Part shown: positions 9,670 to 38,638 of the stretch, piece after piece
Position numbering within the stretch: the stretch's first letter is position 1
Layout of the letters: the number at the start of each line of letters is the position of its first letter
NCBI GenBank assembly: GCA_965208725.1
Contig: CBDBPI010000001.1
Coordinates: 668,687-732,686, forward strand
DNA from: Dehalococcoidia bacterium
GTDB taxonomy: Bacteria; Chloroflexota; Dehalococcoidia; Lucifugimonadales; GCA-2712585
DNA length: 64,000 bases
Direction: 5' to 3'
Notes under the pieces: model-generated
Told to the model about the DNA's origin: nothing
Databases searched by the model: none
The model's input: only the letters and a program-made list of their open reading frames with translations
Program-made: the position numbers and the translations under genes

Positions 9670-10089
9670 CTAGTCAGCCCAGGGGTTGATGACTTCTATA
9701 CCGATGTTGTTGAAGCCATCAACGTCCCTCGTCGCGACCGGAACATCTTTGCACCAAGCGATTGCGGCAATCTGACAGTCTGAGTAGTTGATGGGCCGAC
9801 CGGCAGCGCGACGGTTGGCGGCGATAACTGCATAGGCCTTTGCGGCGGGGCTGTCGAAGGGGAGGATGCGAATGTGGAATTGACTCCGTAGTATATCTTC
9901 CACTACTTCAAGCAATCCATCTCGTCTCCTGCCCGCCGGGAGTATCTCAACGCCAAAGCGCAGTTCAGCCTTGGATATGGTAGTAGTGAATATAGTCGAG
10001 AGTTCCTGGCGGGCGGCCCAAATCGAAACGTTCGGATTGGGATTGGGAAGCATCAACTCTGAGACGACGTTTGTGTCAAAGATGATCAT
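9670..10089 (-). CDS. vapC: type II toxin VapC/FitB (PIN domain ribonuclease)
   Basis: 139 aa. It has the MIIFDTNVVSE start (PIN Asp), a C-terminal ATRDVDGF acidic motif, and sits 9 nt after the antitoxin gene. Confidence 0.85.
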   Translation of the reverse strand: MIIFDTNVVSELMLPNPNPNVSIWAARQELSTIFTTTISKAELRFGVEILPAGRRRDGLLEVVEDILRSQFHIRILPFDSPAAKAYAVIAANRRAAGRPINYSDCQIAAIAWCKDVPVATRDVDGFNNIGIEVINPWAD

Positions 10090-10098
10090 TAACCCGCG

Positions 10099-10368
10099 CT
10101 AGTCAAAACGAGGTGGATCGCGCATTGGCTCGCGAGGTGGGATTTCCAACTCGACGCCGCCAAAGGGCTCAACCAATTTACGAATGCCTTCCACAAATTC
10201 CTTCCCCGTCTTAGGTTTCTCCGGCGGCGGTGGAGGATCATTCTCAAGGGACGATTTGAGTATGTGGAAAGCCTCGTCTTCAATTGACCCACCATTCTTT
10301 TCGGACCGGGCGCGCAGCCGCAGGTATACATCTTCTTCTAACTTCAAACCAATGACTCTCACCATCAA
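10099..10368 (-). CDS. vapB: type II antitoxin, FitA/VapB-like (ribbon-helix-helix)
   Basis: 89 aa with an RVIGLKLEEDVYLRLRARSEKNGGSIEDEAFHILKSSL RHH-like N-terminus, upstream of vapC. Confidence 0.7.
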   Translation of the reverse strand: MMVRVIGLKLEEDVYLRLRARSEKNGGSIEDEAFHILKSSLENDPPPPPEKPKTGKEFVEGIRKLVEPFGGVELEIPPREPMRDPPRFD

Positions 10369-10446
10369 TACACCTCCATTCGAAGGGTAGAGCGATCATA
10401 GCACAAATGGTGATATAACGCTAATTTGTGCTTTTAATCAAAGATG

Positions 10447-11091
10447 TCAGGGGGCGGTGGCTTTGAAGACCCAAAGCTGATGGAAGACTTCGGGCTCGCC
10501 CTTAGGGAGGGCTTGCAAAGGCTCTCCCAGCTTCTCCAGTTTCCAGCGTCCAGCGGTCTCCAATTTCTCCCGCACTTCCCTGAATCCGGCGGTCTCGTAT
10601 AGATCGGGGCGGAGGGTGAAGATGACGTGACCGCCGGGTCTCGTCACGCGGACCATTTCTTCCAGAGACCGGGCGGGGGCGTGGCCCAGGGTCAACACTC
10701 CGATGCTGACGACGGCGTCGAATCGGTCATCGGGAAAGTCCAGCCGTTCCCCGAGGACCATGCGACGCAGTTCGCGATAGACGCCCTTCGAGCGGGCTTC
10801 CTCCAACATGCCGGGGGACATATCTATAGCGGTCAGGTCCCGGTATCCTTCGTCCGACAGCGCCTTGCCCACCAGCCCAGTCCCGGCGCCGGCGTCTAGG
10901 ATTCGGGCGTCGGGGCACACGTACTGTTTGCAAGCCTCAACGGCGAGGGCGGGGCCCAACCATCCGAAGTCCTTGTCCAGGTCCTCGTCGTAGTTCTTGG
11001 CCCAGCTGTTGTAGCGCTCCTCCAACTCCCGGTTGTTGCGGGCGCCATACACCCATTGGACCAGGTTCTGTTCACTGTCCGCGTTTGGCAT
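10447..11091 (-). CDS. class I SAM-dependent methyltransferase
   Basis: 214 aa with ILDAGAGTGLVG (motif I) and DAVVSIGVL. Confidence 0.8.
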   Translation of the reverse strand: MPNADSEQNLVQWVYGARNNRELEERYNSWAKNYDEDLDKDFGWLGPALAVEACKQYVCPDARILDAGAGTGLVGKALSDEGYRDLTAIDMSPGMLEEARSKGVYRELRRMVLGERLDFPDDRFDAVVSIGVLTLGHAPARSLEEMVRVTRPGGHVIFTLRPDLYETAGFREVREKLETAGRWKLEKLGEPLQALPKGEPEVFHQLWVFKATAP

Positions 11092-30928: not shown

Positions 30929-30955
30929 GGGGCGGCTCCGTGGTGGAGCCGCCCC
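30929..30955 (-). terminator. GC-rich hairpin (11-bp stem, 5-nt loop) 30 nt after the protease stop
   Basis: GGGGCGGCTCC-gtggt-GGAGCCGCCCC. On the minus strand it is followed by CACTATTATCC, which is only a weak T tract. Confidence 0.5.
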
Positions 30956-30987: not shown

Positions 30988-33228
30988 TTAGCCGTTTTCT
31001 TCCACCCACCGAGTCTGCCTGCGGTTGCAGGGGGAGGAGAAACGCTCCTGCTCGTACTCAACGATGAAAGTTATCGGAGCCTCTCTAGTACGGCCAGTGT
31101 CTGTCCAACTGCCCCAGGTTTCGGTGACGGTGTCGTAATCGAACTCCGTGCCTTTGGTTGTGATCGACTGGAACTTGGTGCCGCCACACTGGTTGGTGCT
31201 CTTTTGGCGCTGAGACCGGGTCCAAGTGCGCTCCTTTCTCTGCTTGCACACACCCGAGATCAGCCCGGGTGAGCCAACGTTGGTCCAGGACCCGTAGGCT
31301 GTGTTGGGCGTTCCGACATTTTCCCAATCCCCCCATTCCAAGGGTTCGCCGGCTGCGGTGGACCTGGTGTGGCGGGCGTGCCCGTTTGAGCACTCCTCCA
31401 CCTTCTCCCTGTTCGGCCCGCATCCATCGTACCTGTCGAAGGTCCATACATGGGTAGGCGGAGGCGGAGTTGGGGTGGGAGTCGGGGCGGGCGACGACGT
31501 GACCAACGATGCGACTGTGCTCCAGGGGCCTGCGCCGGCATTATTCTTGGCCCTCACCCGGTAGTAGTGCCGAGTGTTGGTCTTCAGGTTGCTAACCGTA
31601 TGCTTCAGGCCCGTTGTGGAGTAGCTGGCATAGCCAATTTCTTCGCCCTCGTCGATTGTCCCAAGCTGCATGTCGTAGCCGGTGACCCCGGACACCGCGT
31701 CCCAGCTGACGGTCACGCTGTTAGCCGTTGCCGTTGCTGTCACGTTGGCGGGCGCAACGGTGGGCTTAGACGGTGTTGGGGTGGGCGGGGGAGAGGGAGG
31801 CGTCGGGTCTGGAGACGGTGGCGGCGCCGGGGTAGGGGGCGGGGTGGGGACGCCGACCACGCCACCCCGTATGAGCTTGGTTGCAGAGTGGGACTCGCCC
31901 ATTTCATCAGTGACGGTGAGCTTGACTTTGGCGCTACTCAATACGGTGAGATGGGCTTTCGCACTTGTGCGCTTGGTCAGAACTCCGCTACCACTGACGA
32001 TCTCCCACTTGTACTTGAGTTTGCCGCCGTCGGGATCCTTCGATCCCGTGCCGTCCAGGGTTGCCATGGTGTGAAACATGGTTCGGGTGAGAGTCGCTGT
32101 AATCTTCGCCACCGGCGGGGTGTTGACTTTGACGGTGACGGAGGCGGCGGTCTTGGCTCCGTTGCCATCGGTGACGATGAGACGAAACTGCAACTCAATT
32201 GCATGATTAGGAGCCTGGAATCTGGCAGTCGCCTGGTCTGCATTGGTGATTGTCAGCCTTTGAATCGGTCCCGCAGGATCATCAGCGTCTTCGTATACTT
32301 CCTCCCATTGATACGACAGCGTGGTATCACCATCTATGTTGCTTCTGCTGCCTGCGGCACGAAGGTACACGGTCTCCCTGGGACGAACCTCCTGAACGGG
32401 AGCGAAGGTTAAGGCCCCTTCGTCCCGCTCCACCTGGAATGCCCCGGCCACAGCGGTGGGGGCGGGGAGGCCAAAGGTGATGCCTAGCTCGTCTTCAATT
32501 ACGCTCGCCTTTAGTACATACACCTTCCTCCCCGGATCTGAATTTAGAGATCCCAGATGGATTCCGACCATTCGGTAGTTGCCTAGCTCGTCCTTGACCA
32601 CATAGGGTGCACCCGAGTCTCCACCTGAACTGGGATAATCGGAACGAACCACCAGCAATGTTTGACGGAACAGACTTCGCTGGCCTCGCACGAACCGAGC
32701 TGTAGCTACGGTCGAGTCTACGGTTCCCCATCCTTCGCCGGAGACCGCGCCTACCGTGAAAAGACGATCATGCTGCTTTGCATCAACGCGGCCGGCCACA
32801 ATTGGCCTAGATGTGTGGTTTGGATGATCGTGCAACTGGAATTTGATGTCCTGCTCACGCACATTGTCGCTGATCAGCAGGGCGACAGCGTCAAGAGGAT
32901 TCTTGGGTTCGTCATCCGGGTAGGGAGCCGGTAAGATCTGTCTCCAACTCTTCTTCACTACCCCGTCAAGCGTTTCAGTGTAGAGTTGTCCTATCTTATC
33001 GGCCTCGTCGGTACCGCCTTCGTACAGCCACTCATTTCCCTCAAGGTCCCATCCGCTCGTGCTCGTGCTGAGGACGTGCTGGCATGTTACGAGGATTTTC
33101 TTCCCATCCGAATTGCGCCTTGCAATTCCTGACAATGTTCCTCGCTCATCTCCTCCCGTAGACGGCATTATGGCGATGCCGGCCATAAGAGGTCTGTGTT
33201 GTCTGGTGATATTGTTTGCTTCTGTCAT
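30988..33228 (-). CDS. multidomain S1 (trypsin/chymotrypsin-fold) serine protease: protease - PKD - PKD - PT linker - FN3 - PT linker - Trp/Cys/Arg-rich C-terminal domain
   Basis: 746 aa. Catalytic triad candidates are TCQHV, DAVALL and GGDSGAP. Two PKD-like segments (LSYQWEEV...LIVTDGNG; DGTGSKDPDGGKLKYKWE...LTVTDEMG). FN3 (VTVSWDAVSGVTGYDMQ...YYRVRAKNNAGAGPWS). The tail has three WG(D/S)W(E/T)xxG motifs. AGGAGGA RBS. No signal peptide seen. Confidence 0.8.
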   Translation of the reverse strand: MTEANNITRQHRPLMAGIAIMPSTGGDERGTLSGIARRNSDGKKILVTCQHVLSTSTSGWDLEGNEWLYEGGTDEADKIGQLYTETLDGVVKKSWRQILPAPYPDDEPKNPLDAVALLISDNVREQDIKFQLHDHPNHTSRPIVAGRVDAKQHDRLFTVGAVSGEGWGTVDSTVATARFVRGQRSLFRQTLLVVRSDYPSSGGDSGAPYVVKDELGNYRMVGIHLGSLNSDPGRKVYVLKASVIEDELGITFGLPAPTAVAGAFQVERDEGALTFAPVQEVRPRETVYLRAAGSRSNIDGDTTLSYQWEEVYEDADDPAGPIQRLTITNADQATARFQAPNHAIELQFRLIVTDGNGAKTAASVTVKVNTPPVAKITATLTRTMFHTMATLDGTGSKDPDGGKLKYKWEIVSGSGVLTKRTSAKAHLTVLSSAKVKLTVTDEMGESHSATKLIRGGVVGVPTPPPTPAPPPSPDPTPPSPPPTPTPSKPTVAPANVTATATANSVTVSWDAVSGVTGYDMQLGTIDEGEEIGYASYSTTGLKHTVSNLKTNTRHYYRVRAKNNAGAGPWSTVASLVTSSPAPTPTPTPPPPTHVWTFDRYDGCGPNREKVEECSNGHARHTRSTAAGEPLEWGDWENVGTPNTAYGSWTNVGSPGLISGVCKQRKERTWTRSQRQKSTNQCGGTKFQSITTKGTEFDYDTVTETWGSWTDTGRTREAPITFIVEYEQERFSSPCNRRQTRWVEENG

Positions 33229-33244: not shown

Positions 33245-33766
33245 CTAGTTTTCTGTTTCTGGTTCCTGGTAATCGCGAATGATTCCCTCCATTGATGGCA
33301 GGTTAGTGAGGATGTGCACCGGCACTCCCATGAAACAGTGGGGAATCCGGTTCTCCGTCTGCACTTGGCTCAACTGAGCGTCAGTGCCAAAATATGCGAT
33401 CCTGATAATCACCTCGTCATCCCACGAACGAACCACATCCCCAAGGGCCCGGCCCTTTATCCGGTACGCATCGACGCTGAACCATGGCGGGCCGCCTTCC
33501 CTGTCCAATCTAGGAATGACGTGCTCTTCCAAGACCATCTCTGCATACGGCACTCTCTCTTCATAGGGCAACGCAGACGGGTTTTCCATACCAGGATCTT
33601 CGTTAATGTCGTTGGGGCAGGGTTCTTGCGGCATGATCCGTTTGTAAACGGGCACATTACTCTCGTAAATGGGGGCCTCACCGTTGCCGCAGGCGGCTGT
33701 CAGCCAGAGGGCGACGGCTGCGATGAAGAGGGCGAGGGCTATTGTTTGCCAGTTGGTTGTTTTCAT
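33245..33766 (-). CDS. cassette lipoprotein 1 (conserved signal peptide, unique mature domain)
   Basis: MKTTNWQTIALALFIAAVALWLTAACGNG.... The ATG at 33766 lies 8 nt after AGGAGG (the ORF track adds GTG-Thr-Pro). The stop is 16 nt before the protease start. Confidence 0.7.
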   Translation of the reverse strand: MKTTNWQTIALALFIAAVALWLTAACGNGEAPIYESNVPVYKRIMPQEPCPNDINEDPGMENPSALPYEERVPYAEMVLEEHVIPRLDREGGPPWFSVDAYRIKGRALGDVVRSWDDEVIIRIAYFGTDAQLSQVQTENRIPHCFMGVPVHILTNLPSMEGIIRDYQEPETEN

Positions 33767-33801
33767 GGGTGTCACCTCCTTTTGTTGGCGGGTTTGTTGA
33801 G
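33744..33801 (-). repeat. 58-nt perfect repeat core, copy 1 (start codon, RBS and leader of lipoprotein 1)
   Basis: gtttgccagttggttgttttcatgggtgtcacctccttttgttggcgggtttgttgag is identical at 34646..34703 and 35601..35658. Flanking similarity extends to ~170 nt. Confidence 0.9.
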
Positions 33802-33825
33802 TTTCTCGTCGCCCATCGGTGATGG

Positions 33826-33855
33826 ATGATAGTACATGTATTCGCTGTATGTCAA
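33826..33855 (-). promoter_or_regulatory. promoter of lipoprotein 1 (TTGACA-N18-TATCAT)
   Basis: The minus strand carries TTGACA at 33855..33850 and TATCAT at 33831..33826. The same arrangement is conserved in all three cassettes. Confidence 0.5.
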
Positions 33856-33976
33856 GACCAAATGTGTCACTTCGGGGAACGGGGTGGGTCCTTCGTCCTT
33901 CGACAGGCTCAGGATGAACTCAGGATGAGCGGGGGATAATGGATTGGGGAATAGTGCTGATGGGAGGAGGTGTTGG

Positions 33977-34111
33977 TTAGCGGGTGGAGTGGGCCAGGTC
34001 CGACTTGCGGCGGGCAATGGCGCCCAGGGTGCCGCGATGCTCTTCTCCGTCGAACGGCATGATGGCTATGCCAGCCCTAAGGGGTCTGTGCCTTTCGTGT
34101 CTATGAGTCAT
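33977..34111 (-). pseudogene. short ORF sA (44 aa): 5-prime stub homologous to the protease N-terminus
   Basis: MTHRHERHRPLRAGIAIMPFDGEEHRGTLGAIARRKSDLAHSTR*. An AAGGAGA RBS lies 6 nt upstream. It aligns with protease residues ~10-50 and is below the ORF-track size cut-off. It could instead be a real small protein. Confidence 0.55.
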
Positions 34112-34146
34112 TTTTTATCTCCTTGTTTTGAATTCTGTTACTTTTT

Positions 34147-34668
34147 TCAGAGAGCAGTTTCCACTTTGCGTACCCTCAAATGCACCTCGATGCCCTCGAT
34201 GCACTCCGGTATACCGTATTCATGGTGAAGTCTGCTCTGTCCTAATTTCTCGTAAACGCTAATGTGGATGGCTTGCTTATCCGTTAGCAGGCCTTTGTCA
34301 TTCTCTATATCCACGATGCTATACTGTGGGATCTGATTGTTGATATACCCATTGGAACTCCTTTCTATCTGGTCTCTGAAGTTGTCCAGTATCGCCTGGA
34401 TGCGCTCCGTTTCCGGCTTGAGACGCTCTGCCCTCCACCTAGTCGCACGATTCTTGCGGTCAGTTCGTAGAAAGTAGTAGACGTGTTCAAGACCCACAAA
34501 TTGCTGGAATTCTTTCGAGGGTTCAAGCGGCGCATCAAGACCACAGGGTGCTGAGGGTGTGATTATCTCCCGACCGGTATATTCGTGTGCACATGCTGCG
34601 GCCAGCCAGAGAGCGAGGGCTGCTATGAAGAGCGTGAGGGCTTTCGTTTGCCAGTTGGTTGTTTTCAT
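34147..34668 (-). CDS. cassette lipoprotein 2
   Basis: MKTTNWQTKALTLFIAALALWLAAACAHE.... Same RBS, leader and promoter as cassettes 1 and 3. The mature domain is barely alignable to the others. Confidence 0.7.
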   Translation of the reverse strand: MKTTNWQTKALTLFIAALALWLAAACAHEYTGREIITPSAPCGLDAPLEPSKEFQQFVGLEHVYYFLRTDRKNRATRWRAERLKPETERIQAILDNFRDQIERSSNGYINNQIPQYSIVDIENDKGLLTDKQAIHISVYEKLGQSRLHHEYGIPECIEGIEVHLRVRKVETAL

Positions 34669-34703
34669 GGGTGTCACCTCCTTTTGTTGGCGGGTTTGTT
34701 GAG
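34646..34703 (-). repeat. 58-nt perfect repeat core, copy 2
   Basis: Identical to 33744..33801 and 35601..35658. Confidence 0.9.
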
Positions 34704-34727
34704 CTTCTCGTCGCTCTTCAGAGACAG

Positions 34728-34757
34728 ATGATAGTATATGTGTTCGTTGAATGTCAA
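34728..34757 (-). promoter_or_regulatory. promoter of lipoprotein 2 (TTGACA-N18-TATCAT)
   Basis: The minus strand carries TTGACA at 34757..34752 and TATCAT at 34733..34728. Confidence 0.5.
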
Positions 34758-34863
34758 GGACGGATGTGTCACTCTTGTGTAGGGTCAGGGGAAATAAGGT
34801 CGGAAGAGGCGGGGAGGGTGATGATGGGTGTTGGGGGATGTTGTTGAGGGGAGGGGAAGTGGG

Positions 34864-35004
34864 TTAGCGGGTGGAGTGGGCCAGGTCCGAATTGCGCCTG
34901 GCAATGGCGCCGAGGGTGCCGCGATGTTCTTCACCGTTCGGCCTTTCGGCTACTATCCTGAGGCCTGCTGTGATCGTGTCGTGATGTTCATTCGGTTTTA
35001 CCAT
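34864..35004 (-). pseudogene. short ORF sB (46 aa): second 5-prime stub homologous to the protease N-terminus
   Basis: MVKPNEHHDTITAGLRIVAERPNGEEHRGTLGAIARRNSDLAHSTR*. AGGAGGA RBS. It ends in the same LAHSTR-stop tail as sA. Confidence 0.55.
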
Positions 35005-35086
35005 AACTCCTCCTAATTTCCTAAATGTGTGGTTTGTTGTTCAATTAACCTTGGTATGCGACCAGAAAATTACCGCCGCTCAACTC

Positions 35087-35623
35087 TCATTCCTCGCTCC
35101 AGCGAGGAGGCACCTGATACTCCTGGGGAAACATAGCGGTCGTATACTTTGCAGCGAGAACGGGATACCCATCCAGGCAGCCCGGCAGCCAGCGATATAA
35201 GTCTTCTCTCCTACCACTCCAGGTATAATCGATGTAGGCAATGACCCCATGGTTCACGGACCACTGTTCCATGTTGCCTGTGTCCTCAGCACGAAGAGAT
35301 AGCCTATTAACAGCAACATAAGCGAATTTGGGTATCGCCCTAAATCGCTCCTCATGTTCCAGGACCACTTTAGCGGCCTCGACCGCATCTCTGTCCCTAT
35401 AGGCTCGCATGTCCAACCACCAATCGGTGTCGACGACGGAAGCAGTAAACGGCGGAGAAGGCGACTCGATGATGGCCAGCGCGCCGAAATCAAAATCGTC
35501 AACACATGGCTCCAGGCCCAATATGTCCTCATAGGAAGGCTTCCCGCAAGCTGCGGTCAGCCAGAGGGCAACTACTGCTATGAAGAGCGTGAGGGCTTTG
35601 GTTTGCCAGTTGGTTGTTTTCAT
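35087..35623 (-). CDS. cassette lipoprotein 3
   Basis: MKTTNWQTKALTLFIAVVALWLTAACGKP.... The ATG at 35623 follows AGGAGG. The longer ORF-track version (to 35716) runs through the promoter. Confidence 0.7.
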   Translation of the reverse strand: MKTTNWQTKALTLFIAVVALWLTAACGKPSYEDILGLEPCVDDFDFGALAIIESPSPPFTASVVDTDWWLDMRAYRDRDAVEAAKVVLEHEERFRAIPKFAYVAVNRLSLRAEDTGNMEQWSVNHGVIAYIDYTWSGRREDLYRWLPGCLDGYPVLAAKYTTAMFPQEYQVPPRWSEE

Positions 35624-35658
35624 GGGTGTCACCTCCTTTTGTTGGCGGGTTTGTTGAG
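35601..35658 (-). repeat. 58-nt perfect repeat core, copy 3
   Basis: Identical to 33744..33801 and 34646..34703. Confidence 0.9.
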
Positions 35659-35682
35659 CTTCTGTTCGCCCTTCAGAGATAG

Positions 35683-35711
35683 ATGATAGTATATGTGTTC
35701 GTGGCTGTCTA
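35683..35711 (-). promoter_or_regulatory. promoter of lipoprotein 3 (TAGACA-N17-TATCAT)
   Basis: The minus strand carries TAGACA at 35711..35706 and TATCAT at 35688..35683. Confidence 0.45.
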
Positions 35712-35798
35712 GACAAATGTCTTGCTTTGGGAAAAGAGGACTGGGGGAAGGGACAGAGTCACGCCTTCGATACGACAGCAAAGGCTGTGCGATAGTGG

Positions 35799-36825: not shown

Positions 36826-37302
36826 TCACCTGGACTTGCGACGCGCCCTCTTGCGGGACCGTTCCCGCGCCTTGCTGGTCGACTCCTTGAAACAGTAGAA
36901 GTTGTCCGAGTCCAAAATCCGCTTCATCACTTCCATGGAGATGTTCATGGGATGGGTGGGCGCGGCCCACTCTTCCGTAACGTCCCAGTGGAGGTCCCGG
37001 AGGCTGGTGGCCTTGTTGGAGTTCTTCAGCAGCAGCCTGAAGACTATCTCCTTGAGGGGCATGGCAGGGGAGATGAAGTCCTCTGCCTGGGCGCAGCAGC
37101 GGGACATGTCCCGGATCTGCTTCCTGACGGTTGGGGGCTTCTTCTCGTTCAACACCCGCTCCACACAGTTTGGGCAACGGCGGCCTAACAGCAGCGACGA
37201 CATGTCTCGCTGCTGGGCTTCCGCCATCTTCGGATCAATTACGTAATAGGCCTTGGATATATCGTGCGCGGGCCGGTCATGCTCCGCTAACTTCTGTACC
37301 AT
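36826..37302 (-). CDS. hypothetical protein (Cys-containing, basic C-terminal tail)
   Basis: 158 aa from ATG 37302 (AGGAGG 5 nt upstream, 1 nt after the moeA stop). It has CPNC...CC and ends KARERSRKRARRKSR. No family recognised. Confidence 0.5.
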   Translation of the reverse strand: MVQKLAEHDRPAHDISKAYYVIDPKMAEAQQRDMSSLLLGRRCPNCVERVLNEKKPPTVRKQIRDMSRCCAQAEDFISPAMPLKEIVFRLLLKNSNKATSLRDLHWDVTEEWAAPTHPMNISMEVMKRILDSDNFYCFKESTSKARERSRKRARRKSR

Positions 37303-37303
37303 C

Positions 37304-38638
37304 TCACCCTCCTGCCTCTTCATTCCAATCGAGCATCTTCACGTCCACAATCTGGCCGCTCTCCATGCAGGGCAGGTCTTCCGGGCAGATAGCAAGCCCG
37401 TTGGCCCGCGCCATGGAGGTCAGGATGTTGGACCCCTGGGGGCCCGTGGGCGTGGCGTAGTAGTTGCCGTTCTGCCTGGTCACCCTTACACGGGCGAAGA
37501 CACGACGGCCATCGAAGTTGATAATCGGTCCCTTGAGTTCCGCGCGGATTGTGGGCTTCGCCAAGTCGGTCCGGCCCAGCATCCGCAGGATGGCGGGACG
37601 GCCGAATTCCTCGAAGGCGACCATGGCGCTGACGGGGTTGCCCGGCAGGCCCAGATGGGGCACCAATCGACCCCCTTCGCCCTTGAGCATGCCCCAGGCC
37701 AGGGGCTTGGCGGGGCGCATCCGCACGGACCAGAAATTCACCTTGCCGCGCTCCGCCAAAACGTCCTTCACGATGTCGTAGTCACCCTTCGACACGCCGG
37801 CGGATGTGAGGAGCAGGTCCGCCGTCAGCCCCTCGTTCAGCTTCCGGTGCATGTCCTCCAGGTTGTCGCGGGCGATTCCCAGCATTTGGGGGACGCCGCC
37901 GTAGCGCTGCACGGAGGCGGCCAGGCTGTAGCTGTTGCTGTCATATATGCGACCAGGCTGGGCGGCTTCGCCAGGTTCCTGCAGCTCGTCGCCGGTGGCG
38001 AGGATGGCTATCCTGGGCCGCCGAATCACCGACACCTGCTCGATGCCGAGGGAAGCAAGGACGCCTATCTCCGAGGGTCTGAGGACGGCGCTGCGTTCGA
38101 GGACTTTTTCGCCCGCCTTCACGTCCTCGCCGGCAGGCCGGACGTGCATTCCCAAAGGCTGGTCGACGAGGATGCCGATTTCATCCATGGAGTCGCCTCG
38201 GGCCTTGCGCTCCACCTCGTCGGTCTCCTCGAAGGGGACGACGGTGTCGCAGCCTTCGGGCGTGGGCGCGCCCGTCATGATGCGCAGGGCGGTACCCGGC
38301 TCCACCGAGCGGTCCGGTATCTGGCCCGCAGCTATCAGGCCGATTACGCGCAGGACGACGGGATTTTCGGGGGAAGCGTCCTGAACGTCCTCGTGGCGGA
38401 GGGCGTAGCCGTCCATGGCGGAGTTGTCCGTCGGCGGAATGTTGAGGGGCGAAAAAACGTCCTCGGCGAGGGTCTGGCCCAAGGCATCCAGGATGGGCCT
38501 GCTCTCCGGCTCAAGAGGGCTGAAGGCGGCGATTATCCGGTCGAAGGCTTCCTCCACGCTGAGCATGTCGGCATGGTAGTGTCCCCGCCTGTGGTGGCGT
38601 CCCTCCTTGTGTCCGTGACCGTGATGGTGGTCCTTCAT
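37304..38638 (-). CDS. moeA: molybdopterin molybdotransferase MoeA with His-rich N-terminal extension
   Basis: 444 aa with SVEEAFDRI, the SAMDGYALR motif, TGAP, ATGDEL, the SGGVSKGD-like SAGVSKGDYD, and PGNPVSA. Confidence 0.88.
   Translation of the reverse strand: MKDHHHGHGHKEGRHHRRGHYHADMLSVEEAFDRIIAAFSPLEPESRPILDALGQTLAEDVFSPLNIPPTDNSAMDGYALRHEDVQDASPENPVVLRVIGLIAAGQIPDRSVEPGTALRIMTGAPTPEGCDTVVPFEETDEVERKARGDSMDEIGILVDQPLGMHVRPAGEDVKAGEKVLERSAVLRPSEIGVLASLGIEQVSVIRRPRIAILATGDELQEPGEAAQPGRIYDSNSYSLAASVQRYGGVPQMLGIARDNLEDMHRKLNEGLTADLLLTSAGVSKGDYDIVKDVLAERGKVNFWSVRMRPAKPLAWGMLKGEGGRLVPHLGLPGNPVSAMVAFEEFGRPAILRMLGRTDLAKPTIRAELKGPIINFDGRRVFARVRVTRQNGNYYATPTGPQGSNILTSMARANGLAICPEDLPCMESGQIVDVKMLDWNEEAGG

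Follow-up and report, generated by a model that had tools for sequence, protein, structure and literature searches.

A tandem array of lipoprotein and S1 protease gene modules in a Dehalococcoidia genome resembles orphan immunity gene arrays

Introduction

Why should neighbouring genes that share a nearly identical promoter, leader and signal peptide encode mature proteins that have diverged almost beyond alignment? Three tandem lipoprotein genes raise this question in a window of 64,000 nucleotides (the whole stretch of DNA analysed here) from a Dehalococcoidia bacterium of the phylum Chloroflexota. Below we describe the anatomy of the locus, place its proteins among their relatives, and weigh the functions that this anatomy might serve.

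Results and discussion

The locus is an array of lipoprotein-protease modules

The locus consists of modules arrayed in tandem, each pairing a lipoprotein gene with an S1 protease gene; the protease is intact only in the last module. Its features are listed below.

35547..35728, minus strand: 5' module of cassette 1; TAGACA-N17-TATCAT (35711..35683), CA-rich leader, AAAGGAGG, ATG and signal-peptide coding region; 58-mer at 35601-35658
35087..35623, minus strand: lipoprotein gene 1; 178 aa, type IV body; orphan, its cognate protease reduced to a stub
34864..35004, minus strand: protease stub 1; 46 codons with its own ribosome-binding site (RBS); chimeric in sequence, codons 1-24 (MVKPNEHHDTITAGLRIVAERPNG) type-IV specific, generic tail EEHRGTLGAIARRNSDLAHSTR-stop from ~34933
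34831..34937, minus strand: inter-cassette block, copy 1; generic stub tail, deletion junction GGACCTGGCCCACTCCACCCGCTAACC and ~30 nt beyond; 86% identical to copy 2
34592..34773, minus strand: 5' module of cassette 2; TTGACA-N18-TATCAT (34757..34728), leader, RBS and signal peptide; 58-mer at 34646-34703
34147..34668, minus strand: lipoprotein gene 2; 173 aa, type III body; orphan
33977..34111, minus strand: protease stub 2; 44 codons, MTHRHERHRPLRAGIAIMPF and then generic tail DGEEHRGTLGAIARRKSDLAHSTR-stop
33944..34050, minus strand: inter-cassette block, copy 2, from the direct-repeat search
33690..33871, minus strand: 5' module of cassette 3; TTGACA-N18-TATCAT (33855..33826), leader, RBS and signal peptide; 58-mer at 33744-33801
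33245..33766, minus strand: lipoprotein gene 3; 173 aa, type I body; still paired with the full-length protease
30988..33228, minus strand: full-length protease; 746 aa, S1-type catalytic domain from about residue 10, then two PKD domains, Pro-rich linkers, fn3 and a Trp-rich C-terminal region

All three lipoprotein ORFs start with MKTTNWQT(K/I)AL..LWL.AAC, which by eye fits the lipoprotein signal pattern of a basic N-terminus, hydrophobic core and lipobox Cys (MKTTNWQTKALTLFIAAVALWL-TAA-C). Each cassette carries the AAAGGAGG ribosome-binding site and its own sigma-70-like TTGACA/TAGACA-N17/18-TATCAT site, the three promoter-like sites matching 11, 11 and 10 of 12 positions. The 58-nt core is exact in all three copies (0 matches in 100 shuffles), and a direct-repeat search returned a 182-nt repeat family with spacings of 902 and 955 nt. 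Coordinates and repeat search together bear out what the original prediction had reported of the 58-mer, its periods, the three minus-strand ORFs, the RBS and the promoters. The sharp switch in identity within each gene also holds: the ~180-nt promoter/leader/signal-peptide module is 84-88% identical among the cassettes (84-87% over promoter and leader, 85-88% over the signal-peptide coding part), whereas the DNA of the mature bodies is 51-53% identical, the level of shuffled bodies (mean 49.7, maximum 53.6) and so saturated.

The repeat search also revealed a second conserved block that the original prediction had missed (107 nt, 86% identical), which consists of the tail of the truncated protease gene and a deletion junction common to both copies; the stubs of cassettes 1 and 2 both run via this one junction into the next cassette. 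The variable part of a cassette is bounded by two conserved blocks, the ~180-nt 5' module on one side and the ~107-nt stub tail plus junction on the other, and a cassette reads in order promoter, leader, RBS, signal peptide, type-specific body and type-specific first ~20 codons of the cognate protease. The GC content of the array is 50-55% against 59-66% in the flanks. It is flanked by ctaG-coxB, within a wider setting of cox, ctaG, moeA and pheST genes, and no recombinase gene was found among the ORFs at 29-40 kb.

Repeats of 180 nt and ~90% identity are known to cause assembly chimeras, and the source is probably a metagenome-assembled genome, so one could ask whether the array was mis-joined from strain variants. 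We consider this extremely improbable: the same alternation of lipoprotein gene, stub and conserved block recurs in no fewer than 7 independent assemblies, including two long-read complete 3-Mb single chromosomes, the junction sequence is common to the window and to the related locus L014 from an unrelated sample, and the three different bodies lie in one consistent orientation.

The protease and its stubs

Directly behind each lipoprotein gene an S1 protease gene begins, which is full-length after cassette 3 and reduced to its 5' end, a stub, after cassettes 1 and 2. The full-length protein has its catalytic triad in canonical order, with His51 (TCQHV), an invariant Asp113 and Ser205 (GDSGAP), and its match to Trypsin_2 is weak (E 0.0036, below threshold). 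PKD and fn3 domains are typical of extracellular proteins; no signal peptide was found on the 746-aa protease of the window, and no secretion-system marker or export route was recognised for it. The proteases open straight with the catalytic domain, without a pro-region. Both stubs of the window (44-46 codons) are cut 5-7 codons short of the catalytic His. The first 24 codons of stub 1 match the full type-IV proteases of loci L014 and L015, in both of which a type IV lipoprotein is paired with a full protease, and the match switches to the generic tail at GAACGG(G/T)GA. On this comparison stub 1 is demonstrably a chimera formed at the second conserved block.

The mature bodies carry a NAL1_N-like domain

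A lipoprotein body comprises a variable N-terminal subdomain and a NAL1_N-like C-terminal domain, with two conserved cysteines. Across the family the near-invariant positions of the mature protein are C25, P117, C119, G122 and V125, which correspond to the early PC and the terminal IPxCxxGxxV motifs first picked out by eye. The lipobox Cys is likewise near-invariant across 53 family members. Some type-IV relatives have lost it and gained a second membrane segment.

The original prediction recognised no described family for these domains; a superfamily-level match to Pfam NAL1_N now replaces that view. None of the three window proteins reaches the gathering threshold of PF25608 NAL1_N (27 bits), the sole hit being lipoprotein 2 (13.1 bits, E 0.084), while the type-V relatives P0011 and P0079 exceed it (33.9 and 64.7 bits). 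When 67 signal-peptide-free bodies, the window's three included, were aligned by hhalign with 30 NAL1_N-type domain copies, the profiles matched with a probability of 99.9 (E 4.3e-31, 80 columns). Searched against the PDB, the domain profile gave nine best matches that were all to rice NARROW LEAF 1 (NAL1), over residues 120-157 (E ~0.05). In NAL1, residues ~120-157 lie inside the 'ABD', a region reported to contact the protease domain of the neighbouring subunit and to be needed for a stable, active enzyme (PMC12012508). By sequence, then, the three bodies are homologous, with their C-terminal ~80 residues matching NAL1_N, and the signal peptide was observed solely on members of this lipoprotein family, so that these are not unrelated proteins sharing a genome-wide export signal.

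The protease may lead to the same plant protein. Its predicted structure, a low-confidence AF2 model (pLDDT 49), returned NAL1 as the top 22 PDB matches in Foldseek (E 3.9e-6, probability 1.0, TM ~0.44), ahead of Streptomyces and alpha-lytic proteases, with 12-21% sequence identity in the alignments. The AF2 model of the lipoprotein, itself weak (pLDDT 67), had no PDB match. None of the locus proteins matched known toxin, immunity or defence families, PADLOC models gave no hit at the locus, and no relative was found in IMG/VR viral contigs.

The bodies are old types that recur across genomes

Arrays of 2-4 lipoprotein genes and stubs that close with one full protease (462-1610 aa) were present in every Dehalococcoidia locus fetched. 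Cassette content differs between related genomes, four of which hold their array at the same ctaG-coxB site, and the same types recur in other orders. Upstream (orphan) lipoprotein genes are mostly followed by a stub, in the window as in related loci, and stubs end before the catalytic His in all cases in the window and most elsewhere. In L001 a fourth cassette is truncated by an IS21 insertion, and in L003 the protease is split over two ORFs.

At least 6 lipoprotein types can be told apart across the loci compared. The closest relative of the type I body of the window is in L004 (about 89-90% aa), that of the type IV body in L014/L015 (about 71%), and the type III body has near-identical stretches in P0055. 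Judged by these similarities the three bodies are old types with closer relatives in other genomes, not decayed copies of one another, and the suggestion that they diversified in situ after a recent tandem duplication does not hold. Diversifying selection on the mature domains is not supported either, since within-type dN/dS (0.25-0.53) indicates no gene-wide positive selection. Orphans gave a dN/dS of 0.34 against one another, and paired copies 0.39-0.43; values of 0.25-0.5 are also compatible with relaxed constraint. Orphan lipoproteins keep intact ORFs, promoters and RBS, and orphans of the same type are intact in genomes whose housekeeping proteins differ by ~15%.

These observations bear on whether the array is simply wreckage, that is, a tandemly duplicated lipoprotein-protease operon decaying by deletion, with 5' modules kept alike by gene conversion and with functionless orphans. 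Stubs that are deletion products, the low GC of the array, the IS21 truncation and the split protease would all fit. We nonetheless regard it as very unlikely, given the survival of same-type orphans between such distant genomes, their mutual dN/dS, bodies that have reached shuffled-level identity to one another yet have close relatives elsewhere, and the recurrence of this architecture at many loci.

Cassettes are probably exchanged at the conserved blocks

The 5' modules tend, in these comparisons, to be alike within a genome while bodies group by type across genomes: the nearest 5' module lies in the same genome for 21/31 copies (18% expected by chance), the nearest body for only 10/31. The type I body of the window and that of L004 are 90% identical in aa and 91% in nt, whereas the flanking ctaG reaches only 85.8% aa and 81.8% nt. 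Synonymous divergence is incongruent within single genes. Between window lipoprotein W3 and L004 the dS is 0.23 for the body and 0.61 for the signal peptide, while against L001 it is 0.75 and 0.15, which supports recombination at the conserved 5' module. The incongruence and the nearest-neighbour counts uphold the cassette-type locus originally proposed. Recombination at the 5' module stands as well, although not its confinement there, as a second block lies on the 3' side and the cassette takes in the first ~20 protease codons.

From the type of the lipoprotein the N-terminus of the protease can be predicted for types I, II, III, IV and V, and lipoprotein-body similarity correlates with similarity over protease residues 26-290 (r=0.82, Mantel 0/5000). 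For the first ~20 codons of the protease, tracking of lipoprotein type could be plain linkage.

With this pairing in hand we can ask whether the bodies are antigens or phage receptors diversified for escape, in the manner of the variable surface lipoproteins (Vsp/Vpma) of Mycoplasma, with the 5' module as a shared expression and export signal and the protease as an unrelated neighbour. A conserved 5' UTR and signal peptide joined to unrelated mature parts is the very pattern of vsp/vpma genes (PMC2268961), and the bodies here are of many types and predicted to be surface-exposed. We find this reading improbable, because a promoter and RBS on every copy predict that all are expressed at once, the locus has no recombinase gene or phase-variable tracts, the bodies have no Vsp repeat structure and are under purifying selection within each type, protease type co-varies with the lipoprotein, and protease stubs mark every cassette. 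The original prediction had offered immunity-type and surface-variation logic side by side; the former stays the best functional reading, and promoter per copy, missing recombinase and co-variation disfavour the latter.

An array of immunity-like partners, or a split protease?

From this anatomy we infer a function: the shared start region and diverged bodies would arise because the adjacent protease comes in different versions, each with a type-specific lipoprotein as its partner. We tentatively favour, as plausible if still somewhat short of probable, an array of surface-anchored, type-specific, protease-binding (immunity-like) lipoproteins, comprising one current pair and two orphans and shuffled by recombination at the two conserved blocks. 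The lipoproteins would be anchored at the outer face of the cell membrane, where their NAL1_N-like domain would bind the cognate type of protease, a proposal drawn from the homologous segment of rice NAL1, which lies in a domain packing against the protease domain. Binding would neutralise a polymorphic protease in a type-specific manner; the type co-variation (r=0.82) and the homology to a protease-contacting domain are indirect evidence here. The protease, having no signal peptide, probably leaves by another export route. Upstream cassettes would be orphan immunity genes that remained after an incoming pair displaced the resident one, and would be retained because they protect against proteases of neighbouring strains. 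Homologous recombination at the two blocks would allow cassettes to be gained, lost and swapped, and would partly homogenise the 5' modules within a genome. Many types, orphan partners with enzyme remnants, and exchange between lineages are features that the array has in common with polymorphic toxin-immunity systems.

The main competing explanation, which we judge rather unlikely but serious, is that of a split NAL1-like protease, whereby the lipoprotein would be the N-terminal NAL1_N/ABD-like domain of the protease itself, provided in trans, tethering the enzyme to the surface and being needed for it to fold, assemble or become active, with orphan cassettes as relics or as docking sites for proteases of other strains. 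The strong homology to NAL1_N, the best match of the (low-confidence) protease model to NAL1, and proteases that begin directly at the catalytic domain all argue for it, and type-specific co-variation suits a structural partner. By homology, moreover, the NAL1 domain is an assembly or oligomerisation interface needed for activity and not an active-site inhibitor, which favours such an anchor or activator. On the other hand, orphans serving only a cis protease should decay, yet they are intact, keep their promoters and show dN/dS like that of paired copies; repeated loss of the protease with its partner kept, the window stubs all ending before the catalytic His, is not predicted; and co-assembly of a Sec-exported lipoprotein with a signal-less protease needs a further export route. 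Apparent fusions of the two (P0216 and P0123) are uncertain, P0216 coming from a 4x-coverage contig and keeping an internal Met.

Although speculative and in our estimate unlikely, a variant is also conceivable in which only cells displaying the matching lipoprotein can capture and activate released protease, the assembly domain of a split NAL1-type protease acting as a type-specific docking receptor anchored at the surface. An extracellular protease would then be privatised, orphans would capture the proteases of other strains as orphan receptors do foreign siderophores, and cassette shuffling at the two blocks would fuel an arms race in which access to a shared enzyme, not a toxin, is at stake.

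Comparison with known systems

Among polymorphic toxins an upstream immunity-like gene combined with an N-terminal catalytic domain is unusual, and the Staphylococcus aureus lipase toxin TslA is arranged likewise. [quoted passage not shown] The Dehalococcoidia locus shares the N-terminal catalytic domain without a Sec signal, the lipoprotein gene directly 5' of the catalytic-domain end, the enzyme gene at the 3' end of non-identical tandem lipoprotein genes, a polymorphic N-terminal domain, and paralogue recombination at a conserved stretch. It differs in that the families are unrelated (lipase and DUF576 there, S1/NAL1-like protease and NAL1_N-like lipoprotein here), the locus has no recognisable T7SS helper genes or LXG-like domain, every orphan of the window bears a 5' enzyme-gene stub, the conserved block is promoter/leader/signal peptide where that of the TilA cluster is mid-gene, and toxicity and immunity are here putative.

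The esaG and tipC arrays carry conserved homology blocks at both the 5' and 3' sides (PMC9484751). As in those arrays, non-identical partner genes are strung here between short blocks of high similarity, through which cassettes would be gained, lost and shuffled. Orphan modules of CDI and Rhs systems keep remnants of displaced toxins beside intact partner genes; those remnants are 3' (toxin) ends, with the orphans downstream of the main gene, whereas here the part left over is an inactive 5' end that stops before the catalytic His, with the orphans upstream.

With Mycoplasma Vsp/Vpma loci the array has in common tandem genes with conserved 5' UTR and lipoprotein signal peptide and mature parts of little or no similarity, but switching in those loci depends on a site-specific recombinase and on one active promoter (PMC2268961). 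Here each copy has its promoter, there is no recombinase, and the bodies have in common a folded C-terminal domain as well as a link to a protease.

Rice NAL1 (PDB 7Y77, 8PMM) resembles the locus in that the lipoprotein C-terminal domain matches NAL1_N, and the low-confidence model of the adjacent protease has its best matches in the NAL1 protease domain; NAL1 is, however, one plant polypeptide, located in the cytosol or nucleus, whose hexameric cage is stabilised by ATP (PMC12012508). In the bacterium two separate genes are involved, the N-domain has a lipoprotein signal peptide, and the protease carries PKD and fn3 domains. In the alpha-lytic protease pro region and the lipase-specific foldase Lif, the latter membrane-anchored and encoded beside its lipase, a cognate-specific domain, separable from the enzyme or encoded apart from it, acts in trans by binding a secreted hydrolase and can both assist its folding and inhibit it. 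The locus proteins had no sequence or fold match to either family, and to our knowledge foldase systems do not come with arrays of orphans.

Conclusions

The protein pair is undescribed, and the arrangement of its genes recalls the arrays of orphan immunity genes seen in bacterial toxin systems. Dehalococcoidia are uncultured and environmentally abundant, and to the best of our knowledge essentially nothing is known of strain-level antagonism among them. Should the immunity reading be true, the locus would represent a previously unrecognised polymorphic protease effector family with lipoprotein immunity proteins in this class, and a second independent case of the 'reverse' arrangement of S. 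aureus TslA/TilA. It also offers a clean natural example of mosaic evolution, in which two short blocks are kept similar within a genome and the cassette between them consists of old types shared across species. Whatever its function, the array gives the NAL1_N domain, part of a plant protease of agronomic importance, a bacterial setting and indicates that a NAL1_N-type domain can be a separate polypeptide co-evolving with a protease domain, which makes the interface between the two experimentally tractable through natural cognate and non-cognate pairs.

Anatomy of the tandem lipoprotein cassettes

The array comprises three minus-strand lipoprotein genes, all of which begin MKTTNWQT(K/I)AL...LWL.AAC, and each is followed, reading along the minus strand, by a ribosome-binding site (RBS) and the start of a serine-protease gene that the original prediction had overlooked.

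Features of the array (window coordinates)
35623..35087, minus strand, lipoprotein 1 (body type IV)
35004..34864, minus strand, protease stub after lipoprotein 1, 46 codons
34668..34147, minus strand, lipoprotein 2 (body type III)
34111..33977, minus strand, protease stub after lipoprotein 2, 44 codons
33766..33245, minus strand, lipoprotein 3 (body type I)
33228..30988, minus strand, complete protease ORF after lipoprotein 3, 746 aa

The 58-nt core proposed to be common to the three cassettes is letter-exact at 33744-33801, 34646-34703 and 35601-35658, never occurs in shuffled sequence, repeats with periods of 902 and 955 nt, and sits within a 182-nt direct-repeat family. Upstream of each lipoprotein ORF lie AAAGGAGG and TTGACA/TAGACA-N17/18-TATCAT, with 11, 11 and 10 of 12 consensus positions matched. 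Segment by segment, the DNA of the 5' module (promoter, leader and signal peptide) is conserved and that of the bodies (the mature lipoprotein parts) lies at the level of shuffled sequence, so the switch between them is as sharp as had been claimed.

Pairwise DNA identity between the three cassettes
Promoter/leader: 84-87%
Signal-peptide coding: 85-88%
Mature body: 51-53%
Shuffled bodies (control): mean 49.7%, maximum 53.6%

A role for the leader as an RNA element was rejected (no Rfam match; RNAalifold -0.45 kcal/mol with no covarying pair), and its conservation is one of sequence, not structure. In several genomes (related locus L001 at 9947-10525, L008 and other loci) an in-frame ATG lies 18 codons upstream of the lipoprotein start (MKSDEKLKQTRQTKEVTPM-KTTNWQ). 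At the equivalent position (35660-35680) the window copies carry CTG or are shifted in frame; the leader is therefore non-coding here, and an ORF extended as in these relatives was rejected. The -10 box stands directly upstream of this codon, so transcription may start at or near it. Tat 'hitch-hiker' export was also set aside, the signal peptide having no twin-arginine motif. Ahead of the cassette 3 promoter, spacer positions 33890-33916 (minus strand) hold CATCCTGAGCCTGTCGAAGGACGAAGG, translating as ..ILSLSKDE.., which we take to resemble a short repeat element of Chloroflexi genomes; it occurs once within the window, and a 'LILSLSKD'-like stretch is also found upstream of the family member P0169, in its N-terminal extension.

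Protease stubs and a second conserved block

Both stubs terminate in ...GTLGAIARR(N/K)SDLAHSTR and a stop codon, 5-7 residues short of the catalytic His position of the full gene (His51, TCQHV), and downstream of both ends the sequence GGACCTGGCCCACTCCACCCGCTAACC is common. A direct-repeat search delimited stub tail and junction as a second conserved block of 107 nt (86% identical), which borders the variable part on its 3' side. Four parts therefore make up the repeat unit: the promoter, leader and signal peptide; a variable body with the intergenic sequence and the first ~20 protease codons; a generic stub tail with the junction; and a variable spacer.

From its RBS through codon 24, stub 1 matches the type IV proteases of the related loci L014 and L015, and at GAACGG(G/T)GA it switches to the generic tail common to stub 2, L014 stub 1 and L001 stub 2. 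This chimera is the direct trace of recombination at the second conserved block. Programmed read-through or frameshifting that fuses lipoprotein and protease was rejected, as the frame offset is 0, 1 or 2 across loci and every protease has its own RBS and ATG.

Just past the protease stop, between protease and coxB, lies a GC-rich hairpin (GGGGCGGCTCC-ACCAC-GGAGCCGCCCC; 30929-30955, minus strand) with no T-run after it; it was not called by a consensus terminator scan, and may be a terminator or a stabiliser.

Related loci in other Dehalococcoidia

A genome scan found the lipoprotein family only in Dehalococcoidia MAGs. In four genomes, with housekeeping proteins ~85% identical, an array occupies the site downstream of ctaG. 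In both L002 and the window the array is followed by coxB-coxA. The four arrays vary in cassette content, and body types recur among them in different orders.

Cassette order at the ctaG site
Window: IV, III, I + protease
L002: I, I', II, III + protease
L001: II, I, II + protease, then a fourth cassette cut by IS21
L004: I + stub, then contig end

Further arrays, several to a genome, are found elsewhere, and two of the assemblies that carry them are 3-Mb single chromosomes; that the repeats are an assembly artefact is a less likely account. The layout recurs at all loci: 2-4 lipoprotein genes, mostly stub-followed, with a full protease (462-1610 aa) solely after the last, and stubs that end no more than about 15 codons past GTLxAxARRxSD.

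An IS21-family element (IstB and transposase) leaves only 41 codons of the fourth L001 cassette (L001 13663-13878 and 13908-16192). The type II protease at L003 (3218-5896) is broken into ORFs of 145 and 707 aa, as a pseudogene or through a sequencing error. Between moeA and ctaG the window holds a 165-aa ORF (36826-37323, minus strand) with no Pfam match; a 158-aa gene stands at the equivalent position in L001, L002 and L004, so this is a conserved hypothetical gene beside a cytochrome oxidase assembly gene.

Lipoprotein type is paired with protease type

Across loci, the type of a lipoprotein predicts how the protease or stub after it begins.

Protease/stub N-terminus by lipoprotein type
Type I: MTEANNITRQHRPLMAGIA
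Type II: MG(H/K)R.S.HRPLRAGIAI
Type IV: M(T/V)(R/K)PNEHHDTITAGLRIV
Type V: MG(Q/E)ANT(Y)HH..

Over 11 complete modules, body similarity correlated with the similarity of protease residues 26-290 at r=0.82, a value reached by 0 of 5000 Mantel permutations. A full-length protease for the window's orphan type IV (an orphan being a lipoprotein gene whose protease is reduced to a stub) is present in L014 and L015.

The bodies and the protease both point to NAL1

Relatives of the lipoproteins numbered 8 in a first search, 72 in a profile search and 344 clusters in an exhaustive profile search. Members of ~300 aa with two domain copies exceed the Pfam NAL1_N cutoff of 27 bits (P0011, 33.9 bits; P0079, 64.7 bits); the window's own lipoproteins fall below it (best E 0.084). 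When a profile of 67 single-domain bodies, the three window proteins included and signal peptides left out, was aligned by hhalign with 30 NAL1_N-type domain copies, the match was strong (probability 99.9, E 4e-31, 80 columns), so the three bodies have a homologous C-terminal domain. The core of this domain is the I-x-I strand and IPxCxxGxxV motif already noted in the earlier description, which had called the bodies almost unalignable. Two near-invariant cysteines in the mature lipoprotein would fit an extracytoplasmic, disulfide-bonded protein.

The nine best PDB matches of the domain profile, though weak (E about 0.05), are all to residues 120-157 of the rice protease NARROW LEAF 1 (NAL1), which fall inside the domain (residues 89-172) reported to touch the protease domain of an adjacent subunit (PMC12012508). 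PDB sequence searches with lipoprotein profiles gave nothing else usable, the lipoprotein AF2 model (pLDDT 67) had no Foldseek match in the PDB below E=1, and no match was found in NCBIfam, PADLOC or viral contigs.

The protease has no signal peptide; its catalytic domain starts at ~residue 10, has the triad His51, Asp113 and Ser205 (in GDSGAP), and is followed by two PKD domains and one fn3 domain. By sequence this catalytic domain is barely recognised (Trypsin_2, E 0.0036; 5 homologues only in a word-based search; nothing usable in a PDB search with the single sequence). For its poor AF2 model (pLDDT 49), the 22 best Foldseek PDB matches are all NAL1, with E down to 3.9e-6, above Streptomyces and alpha-lytic proteases, a likeness of fold that at this model confidence is suggestive only. 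Lipoprotein profile and neighbouring protease model therefore provide two independent lines to NAL1. Taken at face value, the homology could mean that the lipoprotein anchors and activates the protease instead of inhibiting it, since NAL1 needs the domain as an assembly interface in order to be active. We regard this as the main rival to the neutralising role discussed below, and as less probable than that role; alone, it leaves orphan retention and repeated protease loss unexplained.

The protease C-terminus (residues ~590-746; 30988-31450) is marked by Trp motifs at three intervals along it (EWGDWENVG, YGSWTNVG, TWGSWTDTG) and by a number of Cys, matches no Pfam family, loosely resembles thrombospondin type-1 repeats, and has a similar counterpart in P0077.

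BsuPI is an intracellular proteinase inhibitor. The exhaustive profile search returned P0123, a 603-aa lipoprotein with two BsuPI-like regions, both sub-threshold (weak hit, E 0.0011), and two NAL1_N-like domains, which at its end runs in frame into a protease N-terminus; its sequence is no more than a lead to a possible connection of the domain family with protease inhibition. Natural fusions were rejected as proof that lipoprotein and protease descend from one polypeptide, P0216 probably being a frameshift on a 4x-coverage contig and P0123 ambiguous.

In some type IV relatives, P0059, P0062, P0064, P0066, P0067 and P0071 (L015 8001-8690), the conserved signal peptide is followed by inserted sequence that includes a KRR motif and a second hydrophobic stretch, and several have lost the lipobox Cys (G-S/R/K-G); the 5' module is therefore kept even where a different membrane anchor seems to be in charge.

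Modules and bodies have evolved differently

Of 31 copies, 21 have their closest 5' module in their own genome, versus 18% by chance, and only 10 their closest body. All four L002 copies bear their own signal-peptide variant, MPHTTNWY..., despite bodies of four types. Because the module core (leader, RBS and first 8 codons) is conserved between genomes too, functional constraint and homogenisation inside a genome are both at work. Divergence of signal peptide and body appears incongruent, though only indicatively, since signal-peptide dS rests on just 26 codons: lipoprotein 3 differs from L004 by a dS of 0.23 in the body and 0.61 in the signal peptide, and from L001 by 0.75 and 0.15, respectively. 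The window's type I body is 91% identical to that of L004 at the nucleotide level versus 81.8% for the adjacent ctaG, which implies cassette exchange between lineages; GC content is 50-55% in the array versus 59-66% in its flanks. Surface variation of the Mycoplasma type (PMC2268961) is a less likely reading of such an array.

Orphans are maintained: body dN/dS within types is 0.25-0.53, two orphans compared with each other giving 0.34 and paired copies 0.39-0.43. Neutral decay of the cassettes, too, ranks among the less likely explanations.

A candidate immunity-like locus

Four elements come together at the locus: the enzyme is polymorphic, with its catalytic domain at the N-terminus and no Sec signal; the gene of its lipoprotein partner lies directly 5' of the enzyme gene; non-identical partner genes form a string upstream; and recombination takes place at short conserved blocks. 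The same pattern is on record for TslA/TilA of S. aureus (PMC10730906) and for the immunity arrays of esaG/tipC (PMC9484751). On the strength of this match we rank first, tentatively and at somewhat less than even probability, a reading in which the lipoproteins are type-specific neutralising (immunity-like) proteins, two of them orphans. They would bind their cognate protease via the NAL1_N-like domain on the outer side of the cell membrane, and orphans would be retained while their target persists as same-type proteases from other strains.

Our literature search found no paper that connects lipoproteins and protease arrays of this kind in Dehalococcoidia. Loci with this logic are known already; by that search, its protein pair and host lineage, the footprint of 5' stubs and the 'split NAL1' architecture are not.
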